A stretch of DNA of 64,000 nt from Eledone cirrhosa (Eukaryota). The translations under genes and the position numbers were made by a program. A model generated the notes under the pieces. The model was not told where the DNA came from. It saw nothing but the letters and a program-made list of their open reading frames with translations, and made no database searches. The stretch is taken from NCBI GenBank assembly GCA_964016885.1, contig OZ024743.1, forward strand, positions 103,726,001 to 103,790,000, given 5' to 3'. This document shows, one piece after another, positions 3,960 to 57,915 of this stretch (position 1 is its first letter; each line of letters starts with the position of its first letter).

Positions 3960-5294
3960 CGCAATCTGTGTTTGCATGCAGTTACCAGTTCATCTTTTTT
4001 GTTTAGGAGTTGGTTCGTCGAAAACAGCATTTGTAAAGTTTCCTCCGAGCATAAATTGCACGGACGGCGTCCTCCCGTGTAAGAGTTGGCTCTGGACAGT
4101 AAGCTCCAAGTGAGATCATAGGTAATATTGTTATCCTTGAGGTCCCAGATGTGGCCCGAAAGTGTGGTGGCGTGACGCCGGGCCGGGTTTCGGAAGGTAT
4201 GTCTGTGTTAGTATAGCCGGGTCTTGAAGTCACATGCGGTTAATCCTATATAAGTCTTGTTGGAAGTGTCCGTCCTCACGTTGCACTGGTAGATCACATT
4301 ACGATCTCTGCATCTGTTGTCGAGGGGGAAAATGGATCCATCAGGACAGTTGCACCTCCTGGTCGGCTCTCCACTACTATTTAGGTTATTTCTTCCATAG
4401 GGGTTGAGTTTTTTGTTGTTAGAGGAGACGATGTTTTGTGCAAAGTTTGGTGTGGTGCTGTAGGAGAGTTTGATGGTATTTTTGTTAATTATGTTGTGGT
4501 AGCGGTGTTGTAGTGGGAAGTGTTTTTCAATGAGCCTAAAGAAGATTTTCCCGATAGGAGTTGTCACCTCGGCGTTGTGGGGAGGATTGAACCATGTTAC
4601 ATTGCGTGAGCGGCGGTGTCGCCTGCTGGTTCCGCTAATGGAAGCTGGACAGTAGGATATTTCCTCTCGGAAACCACTCCGATTGAGGGCCTGGTTGTAA
4701 TAAGGCGCATGTTCCTCGAATATCTGCTCATTAGCGGACAAACGAGATATGCGGAGGGAGATGTTTTTAACCAGGTTATTGATGTTCCTAGAATGGTTTG
4801 ACCGGCGGTGGATGTAGTGCAGGTTGTCGTTGGGTTTCCTGTATGGGTAGTACAGATCATTATCGAGGTCATGGGTAACGTCCAGGAAGTTTACTCGGGT
4901 CAGGGACGTTTGTGGGGTTATTTTAAATCCCCAGTCGCAGAAGAAGCTGATTAATTGTTTACAGACCCGGTCTGTACTACTGGGGTTGTACCCTTTAAGG
5001 GTAAGGAGCCCATCATCACGGTACAATCCAACGCCGAATGCAGGAAACATATCGGTGAGTTTAGCTAGTAGGAATAATCCTATAAGATCTGTGACCTCAG
5101 CCGAATCCGTCGCGCCCATGCTGACGTCGAAGGGTGAGTCGGGAGCTCTCTTTATCCATTTGGAGTTGTCGAAGAGTAGGACTGTCTTCCTGGCGTGGAG
5201 GATGATGTTTCTTTCCTGGTTGGTGATGGGCGCAAGTGTTTCGGCGAAGTCCAAGGCAGCCGTAAGTAGCGGTAAGGTAATTGAAGCATAGTAA
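3960..5294 (-). mobile_element. Penelope-like element (Neptune-like), RT C-half + GIY-YIG endonuclease, frameshifted
   Basis: ORF 4208-5323 has SMGATDSAE, GLYRDDGL, VNFLDV, WFNPP, a CNC..PL...C linker and a VIYQC...TYIGLT GIY-YIG motif. The 3' UTR probably extends leftward toward about 2700. Confidence 0.9.
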
Positions 5295-5877
5295 CATAGA
5301 ACATTAAATTCAAATCCAGACACAACCGATTCCTACAAAAACTCCGTAGCAACTTAACAGAGTATGATAACACCAATGACATCATGGTGCACTCGGATAA
5401 AACTGGTAACCTCTACTTCGTCAACCCCGACAGATACCACACACGGATCAGGAGCAGCCTAAACTCCACCTATAAAAAGGCTAACCACTCATGCATCGAG
5501 GTCATAAATCGATATGGACAACAAATTACCTCCAGCCTCGGGGTCGCCGACCGCACGGAACCCCTAGATCCACGGACACCCTACTTCACACTGAAGGACC
5601 ACAAATCCGATTTCGACCGTAAACCTTCTATCAGGCTTATAAACCCAACGAAGTCCGACATAGGGAGAATCAGCAAAAAAATCCTAGACCGCGTTATACC
5701 AAAAGTTAAGCAACACGCCAGACTTAGCCTATGGGTCAACACCCAGGAAGTAATCTCATGGTTCAGCAATATGGAGGACAAACGAGACACTAAATTCATC
5801 CAGTTTGACATAGAGAATTACTATGCTTCAATTACCTTACCGCTACTTACGGCTGCCTTGAACTTTGCCGAAACACA
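5295..5877 (+). mobile_element. Inverted 5' part of the same Penelope-like element (RT N-half)
   Basis: ORF 5384-5893 has DKTGNLY, TLKDHK, RLINPTKSDIG and QFDIENYY. Its end, YYASITLPLLTAAL, duplicates the start of the minus-strand piece. Confidence 0.88.
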
Positions 5878-5972
5878 AGATAAAGTAAAATGAAGAAATA
5901 AAATATAAAAAAAATAAAAAAATAATAACATTGACAGTTGAAAATTGCAAACTTGACTGTCACCACAGAATA

Positions 5973-6011
5973 TGAACCTGAAGATTGCGAAAGCATGAAA
6001 GTACTTGTTCA
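5973..6011 (+). ncRNA. Minimal type I hammerhead ribozyme motif
   Basis: Reads tgaac-CTGAAGA-t-tgc gaaa gca-t-GAAA-gtac-TT-gttca. Stem I is tgaac/gttca and stem III is the palindrome AGTACT. The same family recurs at 6295-6380 and 32760-33110. Confidence 0.7.
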
Positions 6012-6240
6012 ATTAACACTTAACATTTAATATTCTACCATACTATTTCATTCTAATAACATTATAATTTTAAAGGATTGTAAATAAAACGAGTAAATCA
6101 GACAAAGTTGGAATATATATATAAATATATAAATATAAATTATCGAGAATCGCATTTCGGCCCACGAAATAACGAAAAACAACCTCTGAGATGTGTGGCA
6201 AGTGCTCAATGATTCAGATGAACCAGACCTATAACAAACG

Positions 6241-6298
<58 letters not shown>

Positions 6299-6792
6299 TA
6301 AAAGGAATTCCAACTTTGTCTGATTTACTCGTTTTATTTACAATCCTTTAAAATTATAATGGTATTAGAATGAAATAGTACAAAGGTACAAAGTGTCTTA
6401 TTAATTTCACGCTTTATATGGAAAATTCAAAGTGTCGGGCTTAAGCCCTTTTTCAGGAGTACAAAATAGATACAGGAATACAATGGAGAAACAAATAAAA
6501 TAAAATCGAAAATGAAGTGTGTAAACAATACAAAGCAGTTTTGGTAAAGAGGTGGAACCCAAAGTATAGTGTCTGTGTCGATATTATGTGTGAGTGTAGG
6601 TGGATGTTTAAACGTGTGGTATGTGGTATGTGGTAGTGGACTTATATGTGTGAGTGAATGCAAGTTTGAATGTGTGTACTATATATGTGAGTTAAAGTGA
6701 TTTTGTGTGTGTGTAAAGTATCTGGCAGTGATTGGGTATATCCATGAGACGTATGGATTTGTATGTACGTATGTATGTATGTATATATGTAT

Positions 6793-53880: not shown

Positions 53881-54298
53881 ATTGAGTAACACTACACCCA
53901 ACACCTTTATTCAACAGAGTACTCAATACTTGGGATAGTAGAGTACAACTATAGAGATAAAAGAGAAAATGACTGTATTGGATGTGTTGTCTGGTATGAG
54001 ATGAGACGTAATGTGTGTGTGAGATGGGGAGACATAACAAAAAAAAAACAATCATAAAACTTCCTTATTAGGCTGGGAGAGTAAACTGTCGATTAGTAGC
54101 ATTGGCCTTGGATTTTAAATGTTGGGAAATACCCATAGTCAGTATGATCTTTTTCAACTCCAAAAGATGTTATCTGAAACGCAGCAATATACCGCATAAC
54201 ATTGCTTCTGAAGTGTTGCTTCGTTAGTACGGCCTGTAAGTAGTGTATGGGTAAAAGCTGGAGGGTAGATTAATCATTAGCTATCGTCAGCACCGTAT

Positions 54299-54725
54299 TT
54301 TCATTTATCGTTTTCGGTGCGCCCGGCCGATTAACTCACTCGATATGCAAATTAGGCTGCTCAGCCGTTAATATGCATAAGGAAAGTATATACTTTCAGA
54401 CGTTCAATCATCTGGCAGGAAGGTATACGGTGCTGACGATAGCTAATAAGCTTGAAACTAGTACATCGTTCCTTTGTCAGTGTTGAACAAAAGGGCAACG
54501 ATGGTTACTAAACACTGTACGGCTTAATTCGGGATGTTTGTTTACAAACAAACCGAGCATTATAATAAATCTTCGGTAAATCCATACGTACATATATATA
54601 TGTGTGCATGTATGTATATATATACATACTACTGTACGTCTGTATACATATATGTATCTACGTAAACATACTTATATTTAAGTAACAGTCGTACTAAGAG
54701 TGAGAAATTAAATTTCGTTTCATTT
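54299..54725 (+). mobile_element. Retrozyme-like single unit (419 bp + terminal redundancy), diverged relative of the 466-bp repeat
   Basis: It begins and ends with tttcattt. It shares ordered motifs with the 20-kb unit: atttatcgt, actcac, tatgcaaattag, aggta, the hammerhead, gtttaca, agtc.tac, agtgag and aatttcgtttc. Confidence 0.75.
54402..54488 (+). ncRNA. Type I hammerhead ribozyme
   Basis: Reads cggtg-CTGACGA-t-agct aata agct-t-GAAA-ctag-TA-catcg. The extended stem I pairs gttcaa..ctggcagga with cctttgtcag..ttgaac. Confidence 0.8.
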
Positions 54726-55354
54726 TTTCCACATATGTATATATATACAGTTTATAATATGAGATAAAGAGGATAATAAATAAAAGCCCCCCTCCTTTCA
54801 TTTACTTGAAGAAAAGAAGAGGCTCCTATCAGAAGAAACCGAATTATCATTTTTCTTACCTGTTGTACAAACCTGGCTGGACACATAACACTGCACATTC
54901 TAAACGTTCTAAACGTTCTATAGAGTTATGAAATAATACATATGAATAAGCCATAGATGACGAACATCATTAAGTAATGTCAGTTTCATGAGGAGATAAA
55001 ACGCCTCCATCCTTTTGAAGTAAAAATAAACACAAATGAGTCTATAAATCCTGGAAAACTGTAAGTCCGGTATTGGGAAAAAAAAAAAAAAAAAAAAAAA
55101 AACACAAGGGATTGACACTCCAAATTCACTATTCTCCTTTTACTTTGCTCCACTTTTCAAGTTAAATGACACGACGGTTCAGTTATATTCAAATGTAAGC
55201 GCGTCCATTGAGAATATCGTTACGATGTTTGCGAAAATGTAAAACAAATATTTATATCCCATACAGAAATGTTGACTTTTATTTCTATATACTTTATTTA
55301 TATAATTGTCTGTTGATGGATTTTGTATTTCACTCTATATCTTCACCATTAACA

Positions 55355-57915
55355 AGAGGAAGGCAACGACGACAACAGTGTCATTAACAACAACAACTCA
55401 GCCATTAACAAGAGGAAGCCAGCCTCAGCATCAGTGTCTCACCTCCAGCGCCCGTTCTTTTCTCTTGTTTTCTGGCACCTCCATATATATATAGGTGAGC
55501 TATGAGGTCCTCTTACCAGCACTTTCCCTTCCACCCACACACGCCAGCCACCCACCCCTGATGCCGCTCGGTGCCCCACACCCCATCCCCCACCCCTCCA
55601 AGCCGACACCTGCAGCACTTGCAGCACCACTAACAAACGGAAGAGGGGCCGGAACTGTTTGGGGTGCAGCTGCTTCCACCACCTCACCTGCGTTGACCTG
55701 ACTCGTCGAGCTGCCAATGCCCTCGCAGCGTGGAGGTGCAGGAGCTGCCTCTTCCCCACGTCTTCCCAGCCACGGCCGTCTGGCACACCACCGGATGGGA
55801 CAGCGTGCTTGCCTGACGCCCGAGCCTCGCTGGTCAACATCGCTCGGCTCAGGCGGCTCCGGAAGATCTCACTCAGGATCCCGAGAGCGGCACGGGTGCC
55901 GGTAGCCGATGCCCTCGCTTCCTCGATTGAGAGCGCCCTGGACTTCAATCGAGCCAGTGACTGGGAGCGGCTGTTCTATTTCGCCCCACTCACCCTCGGC
56001 CTCCCCAGCTCTGGCGCTGACCGGGGCGGCCGGTCAACAGCAGCCTTCGTCAAGGCCAATGTCTCGTCCTTTGGGCGAGCGCCCATTCCAAGCGTGCCCA
56101 GGGACGCCACACACCCCACCCTCAGGTACCTCCATCCTCCACCTGCAACCAGGCAGTTCTTCAACAGCTGCCCATCGGAACCGGCATCCAGGGACTCCAG
56201 GCACCTCATTGTCAAGCTTGACATGAGGAATGCCTTCAACTCTTTACGCCGGGATCATCTGCTCGAGGCCTGCCTCAGCCGAGCCCCCTCTGCCTACCTT
56301 CTGGCCTACCTGTCATATGGAGCCCCGAGCATGCTCCTTGCTGCTGATACGGTCATACCCTAGGCTACTGGGGTCCAACAGGGCGACCCTTTGGGACCCC
56401 TCCTGATCGCCCTTGGTATTGACGACATCGCCCGGAGTATCACGGCCCCTCTCAACGTTTGGTATCTGGATGATGCTACGTTGGGCGGGCCCGTATGGAC
56501 GGTCTGCTATGACCTTCAATCGGTGGTTCCTGCCCTGGCGGGAATCGGCCTCCAGGTCAACTCGGCCAAGTCGGAGGTGGTGAACGTCAACCTCGATGCT
56601 GCGAGCTTTGCAGTCTCCGTCTGGGACGTGCGGTCCATTCTCCGCCAGGTTCAGGTGACCCCCAAAGAGGATGTCCTCATCCTCGCGTCACTGATCCACC
56701 CGCCGGCCATCCGCTCCACCATCAGGTCCAGGCTTCAACAGCTCCAGACTCTCACGAGCCGACTGGGCTTGATTGACGGCCACCCAGCTCTCTTTCTGCT
56801 GAGGAACTGCTTCGCCATGCTGAATCTCTTCTATACACTCCGCAGCGCTCCATACTACACCCAGACATCTCTCCTCGCTGACCTCGATACTTGTATCCGA
56901 GCAGCAGCCGAGGGGATATGCAACGTCAAGTTTGACGACATAAGGCGGCAACAGGCCACTTTACCGGTCAGGTATAGCGGCCTTGGCCTCCGGTTCCCGA
57001 TCTCACTAGCTTTTCCGGCGTATCTTTCGTCGGTAACCTCGTGCCGCGTCCTCGTCAGCAGGGTTCTTCAAAACACAACAGAACCCTCTGTGTTCAGACA
57101 ACGTGAGGCCGCCTGTGAGACGTGGGGCCGGCTGGGACTTAGTCCAGTAGACGTCCCTCCTTCATCTCCCCTATTGACGTCAAGTCCCCCCAACGCACTT
57201 GGGATGACACCCAGTGCAGCCTGGCCTCAGGCAGGCTCACGGGCCAGCTCGACCAGCACCGTCTTGTTTGTTTTCGTGCGGCCTCCAAATCCCACGGTGG
57301 TGCCTGGCTCCATGCCCTGCCCTCCTTCTCCACTGGCACGCAGCTAGACAACCATAGCCTGCGAATCGGCGTTTCCCTGAGGCTCGGCCTCCGGATCTTC
57401 CAGCCACACCAATGTCGCTGCGGTTCCACCGTGGACTCTTTTGGCCTCCACCCGCTTTTCTGTCTCCACAGTGCCTGCCGCATTCCACGCCATGCTTCCT
57501 TCAACGAGGTCATTAAGCATGTGGAGGCACTGTGGAGAGCCGGTGGGGCTGGATCGAGGGGACGGCAAAAGACCAGATGGCATGACCATCTTCCCGTTCC
57601 GCAGTGGCAAACCCCTCGTCTGGGATGCCACTTGCACCGACACTTTCTGCAGCCGCAACCTGATGCAGTCTGAGACTGACCCTGGTTCTGCTGCACGTCG
57701 GGTGGAGGTGGCCAAACTCCTCAAATACCAGTCGTTCTCCGACATGTTTGCGGTCGTACACCTGGCAGTGGAGACTTCTGGTGTCCTCGACCCCAGGGCT
57801 ACCTCCTTACTCACACCATAGGCGCTGAGCTGGCCAGCTGCGGGCGTGAGTGGCTTTTCCAGCGCGTCTCTCTTGCCGTCTTCCGGGGAAACGCCTTCTC
57901 CATTCTGTCCACCGG
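55355..57915 (+). mobile_element. CRE-clade RLE non-LTR retrotransposon, internally deleted and frameshifted
   Basis: This GC-rich island has an N-terminal PHD-like C..FHHLTC...WRCRSC. RT motifs are KLDMRNAFNS, GVQQGDPLGP, WYLDDATL and QATLP..GLG. RLE motifs are RH..FN, KRPDG and WDATC. Confidence 0.85.

Follow-up and report, generated by a model that had tools for sequence, protein, structure and literature searches.

What is the repeat around 54299..54731, and how did it reach its place in the genome? The 64,000-nt stretch of Eledone cirrhosa DNA analysed here (the window) is part of a 3.0-Gb animal genome and rich in TA microsatellites, and it holds, besides this repeat, a 466-bp unit whose motifs follow the same order but with low overall identity. 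We refer to the flagged family as A (the window copy belonging to subfamily A1) and to its 466-bp sister as B. A sequence-only reading had taken the two for members of a family with subfamilies rather than a local duplication, and both units are indeed high-copy: a first look at the genome gave 1,169 candidates for A and 941 for B (40 scored each), and the exact A-type ribozyme pattern matched 13,890 times genome-wide versus 0 for a reversed control. Judged from its sequence, the window feature belongs to a small non-coding repeat that carries a hammerhead motif and is present thousands of times; A is low in GC (~35% by base counts), and no ORF of at least 120 aa was found across the window copy, whose parts are as follows.

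54276..54298, minus strand: ribozyme region 54425-54447 in a second, inverted copy next to the 5' junction (100% over 23 nt)
54299..54731, plus strand: 5'-truncated putative retrozyme copy of subfamily A1 (locus L001), a 428-nt unit plus ~5 nt of overlap, its 3' end being the family's 'long' site
54344..54355, plus strand: TATGCAAATTAG, which matches the proximal element of host U6/MRP promoters and doubles as the 5' arm of a hairpin
54386..54394, plus strand: TATA-like box, 41 nt 3' of the proximal-like element (45-47 in U6/MRP genes), within a small hairpin
54427..54469, plus strand: predicted type I hammerhead of family A (motif scan and folding)
54517..54524, plus strand: long-range helix, 5' strand (motif position, folding and covariation)
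54584..54666, plus strand: long TA-rich hairpin, its length varying between subfamilies
54673..54680, plus strand: 'short' 3' end site TTTA/AG (the slash marks the end), internal in this copy and 6 nt before the helix 3' strand in A and B
54687..54694, plus strand: long-range helix, 3' strand (motif position and covariation)
54698..54704, plus strand: GAGTGAG, forming a local helix with CTCACTC 54335-54341 (the next unit's copy)
54723..54731, plus strand: T6 run and 'long' 3' end of the window copy (end mapping)
54732..54750, no strand: TA-rich remnant of the target microsatellite (sequence)

The unit had been given as 419 bp, a length refuted by the tandem period of A1 copies, 428-431 bp (464-538 in A2, 466-470 in B and C), and by the window copy proper, which spans 428 nt (54304-54731) plus the overlap. 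The 'terminal redundancy' seen in the word tttcattt proved to be off register by 9 nt, because the unit contains two near-identical words, tttcattt and ttccattt, at a distance of about 9 nt. The inverted 23-nt piece at the 5' junction is either filler or the leftover of a second arm.

Stems I and II, listed earlier among the covarying pairs, correspond in A and B to the motif of a predicted type I hammerhead ribozyme, which the sequence-only reading had missed. Both families have stem I, CUGANGA, stem II, GAAA, a palindromic 2-bp stem III and an NUH cut site. In A, stem I (54427-54432/54464-54469) leads into the catalytic core CUGACGA (54433-54439), stem II (54441-54444/54449-54452) has a U.U closing pair and is followed by GAAA (54454-54457), stem III is palindromic (ACUAGU), and the cut is predicted after GUA, between 54463 and 54464. 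Cleavage after GUU, as in B, and with a U.U pair closing stem II, as in A, is in both cases likely to be slower, and an Rfam scan of the window returned no hammerhead at gathering score. Stem III being palindromic, the hammerheads probably act as dimers. The arrangement is that given for animal type I hammerheads in the available text of PMC4209133, with a helix I of 6 bp, a helix II of 4 bp, a short palindromic helix III and activity as a dimer, and for the U.U pair that closes stem II in A there is a precedent in the axolotl hammerhead HHR_Amex2. Since the covarying stems form this motif, the element can be assigned to a known class, the non-LTR retrozymes, all of whose sequence hallmarks are displayed by A and B. 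As a separate observation, two families of Penelope-like elements (PLEs; L111, L122 and L135, at ~2200-2250, downstream of GIY-YIG, and L125, L132 and L172) have a hammerhead-like core with U3-A8 replacing C3-G8, and this core (TTGANAA...GAAACCGGTA) escapes standard CUGANGA scans.

Family B is present in the window as a tandem array with the following parts.

20107..21231, plus strand: family B array, 2.4 tandem copies of a 466-nt unit (99% alike), truncated at the 5' end, with its 3' end at the 'short' site and (TA)n following at 21232-21333
20401..20412 (second copy 20867-20878), plus strand: TATGCAAATTAG in family B, a promoter-profile match
20495..20539 (second copy 20961-21005), plus strand: predicted hammerhead of family B, with a predicted cut after GUU, between 20532 and 20533

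When cut at the ribozyme, A and B/C monomers are collinear with 60-64% identity, versus 43-48% for the unrelated family E, and a sensitive local A-B alignment extends over 435 columns (61.6% identity, E 7.6e-22), with all motifs named earlier at the places given for them. The alignment thus identifies A and B as homologous sister families (61-62% identity). The ribozyme pattern of the B-like family C gave 4,331 matches versus 1 for the control, nearly all of those listed being C, that of E, an unrelated 310-bp repeat, gave 4,611 versus 191, and the additional subfamilies A2 and D were recognised in fetched loci. E is a very young 310/311-nt hammerhead repeat (L091, L092, L093, L019) with ends at unit positions 140 and 166. 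A different hammerhead element (CTGATGA...cagttctagtcctg) is present as a short inverted insertion at 21400-21505, in the TA run 3' of family B, and also on both flanks of a 31-unit C array (L094:1067, L095:7711-7729); TA runs are collectors of nested insertions. Another two-armed, TA-flanked hammerhead element (L180:930-1500, minus strand) has an octamer-TATA-GGCAGG-ribozyme layout with extra upstream octamer-like repeats.

Circular folding, the check proposed for both units, returned one common branched structure for A, B and C, with minimum free energies well below those of shuffled sequences (z -5.6 to -10.3, 25 shuffles each; -5.6 for A and -9.7 for B); the re-phased window A copy used for it lacks 2 nt at the join. 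Antisense strands scored likewise low (z -3.9 to -10.6), so energy alone cannot pick the strand. We scored covariation on 14 monomers, one per locus, chosen out of ~120 extracted to span the subfamilies. RNAalifold predicted 72 pairs on this alignment, 15 of them with changes on both sides versus 0-3 for slid partners, which bears out the claim that paired regions change together. Double changes affected three of the six pairs of stem I (cggtg 54428/catcg 54464 in A, aatattg 20495/caatatt 20533 in B), three of four in stem II and three of eight in the long-range helix (gtacggct 54517/agtcgtac 54687 in A, gtatgact 20590/agtcatac 20772 in B). The covariation score lay above all 500 shuffles and the pair count was reached in 19 of 500, controls that overstate significance since the sequences are related and the structure was drawn from the same alignment, and the independent events are few (two clades plus subclades). 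For stems I and II, which the core sets a priori, all six A-versus-B one-strand changes (three per stem) are matched at the partner (chance ~5e-5 by a hand estimate), and the double changes of the long-range helix do not all divide the subfamilies in one way, two of them varying inside the A group, which points to more than one event. G.U pairs are tolerated on one strand of the 14-unit alignment. The ATGCAAAT hairpin, by contrast with these helices, showed 0 double changes over nine pairs, its 5' strand being nearly invariant and its partner mismatched, which suggests sequence constraint. The compensatory changes between A and B support the earlier proposal of selection on the RNA fold, which, when maintained while the sequence drifts, leaves covariation. 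The pairing of gagtgag (54698) with ctcactc (54335) had been read as closing a circle; in the monomer phased at the ribozyme it is a local helix and thus no evidence of closure. Its core is by eye invariant, without covariation, and it was left out of the count because MAFFT misaligned A versus B there.

The way in which copies end was mapped on the arms of 30 A1 and 26 non-overlapping B loci (four overlapping ones dropped), taken as best matches to the window copies. The 3' ends of 58 A1 arms fell at the short site in 26 cases, at the long site in 24 and elsewhere in 8, and those of 45 B arms at the short site in 23, at the long site in 21 and at the ribozyme cut in 1. Both kinds of end lead into (TA)n, i.e. 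microsatellite insertion. In both families the short site (TTTA/AG) precedes the 3' strand of the long-range helix by 6 nt and the long site (TTTAT/CG) follows the next hairpin (unit positions 217 and 273 in A, 233 and 302 in B), and by this placement the two sites are homologous between A and B. They are 56 nt apart in A1 versus 69 in B because the intervening hairpin differs in length, indicating that structure, not a ruler, places them. A long end was combined with a short one in 13 of 18 A1 and 18 of 19 B head-to-head pairs (31 of 37 together), never two alike, each of the remaining pairs including an unclassified end; likewise, 20 loci were chosen by position only, and of the 10 where an end could be called on each strand, 9 had short plus long and the other was ambiguous. 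The 5' ends are scattered; at up to 6 nt from the cut we counted 1 of 50 (A1) and 1 of 44 (B), against expectations of 1.4 and 1.1. In A1 one tenth of the unit holds an excess of 5' ends (12 of 50), which misalignment at the TA-rich hairpin probably explains. At L039, two B segments (1113-1137 and 1184-2093) stop at the ribozyme cut, as if primed on the 3' end of cleaved RNA.

These ends bear on the suggestion that insertions begin at different points of the unit. Phases do differ, but not by random permutation: 5' truncation varies and 3' ends are fixed at two homologous sites, and the two window insertions are out of phase because their 5' truncation varies and A ended long, B short. The geometry is that of Penelope-type insertion, with the enzyme itself presumably of that kind; PLE traits reported in the available text of 10.1101/2021.04.23.441226 and PMC8557442 include truncation, an inverted 5' copy, a one-sided tail and (TA)n bias.

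What template was copied can be approached through the arms themselves. They cross the cut site 50 times in A1, 49 in B and 37 in E, counts partly forced by locus selection, and each arm can hold sequence absent from the other, so that both must go back to a template, neither being a copy of the other. B variants present in at least four loci were carried by every unit in 25 of 26 cases and were common to the two arms in 20 of 20, while locus-private B variants were single-unit in 62 of 65, as expected of later mutation. Among 30 units of family E at four loci, with arms of up to 9.4 units, we found 0 within-locus differences, each locus having its own haplotype, carried by both arms where both were extracted. 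Cut-site read-through and shared haplotypes are most simply accounted for by one circle and two primers. They are also better evidence for a circle than that first offered: the view that copies arise by reverse transcription of circles stands as regards reverse transcription, and probably as regards circles, while its proof was wrong (a local helix, an off-register redundancy, and 3' ends that are in fact fixed). A 31-unit C array with repeating variant patterns indicates that long arrays also grow at the DNA level. A-to-I editing, considered separately, was not confirmed by array-wide A>G versus T>C counts (5 vs 3, 0 vs 2 and 11 vs 7).

Read-through and shared haplotypes are, however, also predicted if the same element, inserted in the same Penelope-type manner, were copied from a linear multimer, transcribed from tandem source arrays of uniform sequence and left uncleaved, with the ribozyme cutting rarely and circles being by-products. 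The hammerheads, with their 2-bp palindromic stem III, do look weak as monomers, eight of nine Xenopus dimers are reported without in vitro cleavage, and uncleaved oligomers are, in the accessible part of a review, able to serve PLE insertion. We nonetheless regard this template as unlikely, as the zero-difference arms of E (9.4 units) and its four haplotypes would require a separate, perfectly homogenised source array per locus, and coral, mussel and axolotl retrozymes are, in the portions of the reports available, predominantly circles. It is highly improbable that a LINE-type (L1/R2-like) enzyme moves the element as a SINE, the inversions reflecting twin priming on a single linear RNA with its end at the T run: the long end does lie at or just past a T5-T7 run, like a Pol III terminator, and LINE reverse transcriptases occur in the window, but arms overlap in sequence, may exceed one unit and may carry sequence that the other lacks (e.g. 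L056), they traverse the cut site and contain the promoter region, which would be missing from a terminated RNA, and the copies are without a poly(A) tail. Least credible of all is a DNA-level satellite or rolling-circle DNA element whose stems are DNA hairpins and whose copies open at arbitrary phase, as might be suggested by arrays that reach 31 units and bear marks of duplication at the DNA level, given a catalytic core intact across 61%-identical families, G.U pairs tolerated on one strand, and 3' ends that are fixed and polar while 5' ends scatter.

Transcription of the RNA precursor probably starts within the unit itself, in which a block upstream of the ribozyme resembles in sequence the proximal element of host type 3 Pol III (U6/MRP) promoters and may be used as such. 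Three distinct host U6 promoters and the single RNase MRP gene have TATGC(A/T)AAT(T/G)AG in common, located at -76 to -78, together with a TATA box at -31. TATGCAAATTAG of A and B is identical over 12 nt to one host U6 promoter and scores 18.6 bits, versus 17.3-19.5 for the four host promoters that built the profile and at most 9.0 for seven U1/U2 promoters; the word occurs unaltered in 86 of 94 monomers, which do not count as independent. A weak TATA (4.7-5.6 bits) follows the proximal element at 40-41 nt in A and B versus 45-47 in host genes. Transcription is predicted to begin immediately 5' of stem I, 42 nt ahead of the cut in A and 54 nt in B. A third hammerhead element, otherwise dissimilar (L180), has the same promoter-ribozyme layout, and singleton hammerheads had at least 10 bits upstream in 4 of 23 cases versus 14 of 1,000 background windows. 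Against promoter function stand the short spacing, the position of TATGCAAATTAG within an RNA hairpin, the missing distal element (no convincing match ~260 nt upstream in A-D, with a best nominal p of 0.01 across 14 scans) and the T6-T7 runs within A1 units, which should stop Pol III; the longest T run is 6-7 in A1, 5 in B and 4 or 7-8 in A2, and host U6 terminators are T7-T10. A Pol II snRNA-type promoter for A-D was unsupported by the U1/U2 profile (7 distinct promoters), and host U1/U2 promoters have no octamer at the position of the proximal element.

The host genes vary in these elements as well. Among six U6 loci viewed, the proximal element is at -76 to -78 in three, displaced by an insertion in one and absent there in two, and twelve weaker U6 matches without it look like retrocopies. 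Family E is without the U6-type proximal element but has the distal element of snRNA genes (0 of 100 shuffles); its first 13 nt agree with the distal element found in host U1/U2/U6 promoters. Host snRNA promoters (L231, L232, L233, L288; L141-L148, L191, L193) share a distal TTAY(C/T)TCCCTT near -260, absent at MRP and L233; U1/U2 promoters have TCAGT at -56 to -58, and U6/MRP promoters an octamer-like word at -77 plus TATA at -31. This promoter grammar is possibly useful for guide-RNA expression in this animal.

A search for the partner enzyme covered PLEs of the same genome, in which we counted 10,596 GIY-YIG candidates (150 scored). Sampled elements are ordered reverse transcriptase then GIY-YIG (the former found in four of four, the latter in two of four), and sampled GIY-YIG elements carry the CX2-5CxxC linker of Neptune/Nematis types; several sampled PLEs have hammerheads in the 3' region and two end sites in (TA)n. 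An nhmmer search with three unit profiles against 50 of the 10,596 GIY-YIG loci, Naiad-type excluded, found no autonomous A/B homologue and no pLTR or 3'-end homology, the matches being nested retrozyme copies plus two weak ones (E 0.17 and 0.42), and no autonomous A/B relative appeared among 16 singleton hammerheads with the same stem III and four A-like loci. The shared short word TTTCGTTT in the 3' UTR of one PLE family was rejected as a link, its distance from the ends being different. The window itself contains, at 5880-6400, the 3' end of a Neptune-type PLE with its own hammerhead (core 5978) that runs into (TA)n and then an inverted copy (family of L140, L174, L175), and, at 4208-5893, two oppositely oriented RT-like fragments that by eye resemble those of PLEs (no Pfam hit). 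LINE reverse transcriptase remnants (RVT_1) lie at 29239-31460 and 42270-43334, a GC-rich LINE remnant with RT-like motifs by eye (no Pfam hit) at 55509-57347, a 40-bp x 15 minisatellite at 38133-38733 and a 2.1-kb TA array at 27079-29173.

Taken together, A and B are high-copy, protein-free repeats with a hammerhead motif, i.e. non-LTR retrozymes, whose RNA is likely cut to unit length, circularised and copied into (TA)n by a Penelope-like enzyme priming at two fixed sites of the fold. Transcription of a tandem copy would probably begin ~42 nt ahead of the cut in A and 54 nt in B, with the U6-type element of the upstream unit serving as promoter. Two successive hammerheads would then free a 428-nt (A) or 466-nt (B) monomer, to be closed by a host ligase, a step modelled on the available accounts in PMC7229834 and PMC4209133. 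A GIY-YIG endonuclease would cut (TA)n, and each DNA end would prime reverse transcription at one of two AU-rich sites that flank the structured module, matching the fixed ends observed. The cDNAs would run variable distances round the presumed circle, through the ribozyme junction, in line with the arm geometry, and would join head to head, or one arm would survive, as in both window copies.

More tentatively, A and B may form a self-promoted circular-RNA retroelement in which the fold instructs the Penelope-type enzyme, the two priming sites let both ends of one (TA)n cut copy the same circle by rolling reverse transcription, and circularisation internalises the U6-type promoter. If so, a normally external promoter would come to lie inside the unit and render each tandem copy live, and the covarying sister families would map the RNA determinants of the PLE tail-and-inversion mechanism. 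How PLEs come to insert in tandem and inverted form with a tail on one side is an open question according to the accessible part of PMC8557442, and in the literature as far as available the spread of retrozymes through circles copied by PLE enzymes is proposed, no demonstration having been found. A and B provide a small, defined template of ~430 nt that can be mutated as RNA; its two priming sites are mapped, and the families, at 61% identity, keep them at the same place with respect to a covarying helix. The U6-type element would account for constitutive expression, though a review expects no promoter. Literature on octopus/cephalopod hammerheads, on retrozyme or mollusc U6/type 3 promoters and on PLE both-end priming (few subscription papers covered) leaves the A/B families, the paired ends and the promoter undescribed. 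What is added here is the cross-family comparison, i.e. covariation together with two ends at homologous structural positions.

Compared with known systems, A and B are closest in kind to metazoan non-LTR retrozymes, which, in the accessible text of PMC7229834 (Cervera and de la Pena 2020), the review PMC7761336 and 10.64898/2026.07.22.740005 (Li, Clavereau and Pollet 2026), likewise form short tandem repeats of low GC with a type I hammerhead per unit, number thousands of copies without coding capacity and fold into a highly paired predicted circle, with co-existing PLEs proposed as partners. The units here (428-540 nt) are at or above the size range given for them (~150-450 nt). Two fixed priming sites, paired short and long ends and a fold kept across 61%-identical sister families are not described in the parts of the retrozyme papers available; retrozymes are, according to the accessible text of the review PMC7761336, apparently without promoters or conserved motifs pointing to a partner, and those of Xenopus are reported to have pLTR homology, unlike A and B, for which none was found among the 50 GIY-YIG loci sampled. 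The invertebrates named in the available text of 10.64898/2026.07.22.740005 are insects and a coral only, and the word 'ribozyme' does not occur in that of PMC13282606. Newt satellite 2 and Schistosoma Sm-alpha, as cited in the available parts of PMC2220036 and PMC6765202, likewise consist of hammerhead repeats with an in-unit promoter from which an upstream unit transcribes the next; the newt promoter is of the Pol II snRNA type and the Schistosoma one Pol III, whereas the motif of A and B, as a sequence match, is to the host U6/MRP (type 3 Pol III) proximal element and not to the U1/U2 element. With PLEs of the Neptune and Naiad types (Craig et al. 2021, PMC8557442, available text), A and B share 5' truncation, partial tandems, an inverted 5' copy, a tail at one end and (TA)n targeting, from which they differ in having no ORF, a tail of 56-69 nt rather than 30-40 and an entire element that equals one repeat unit.
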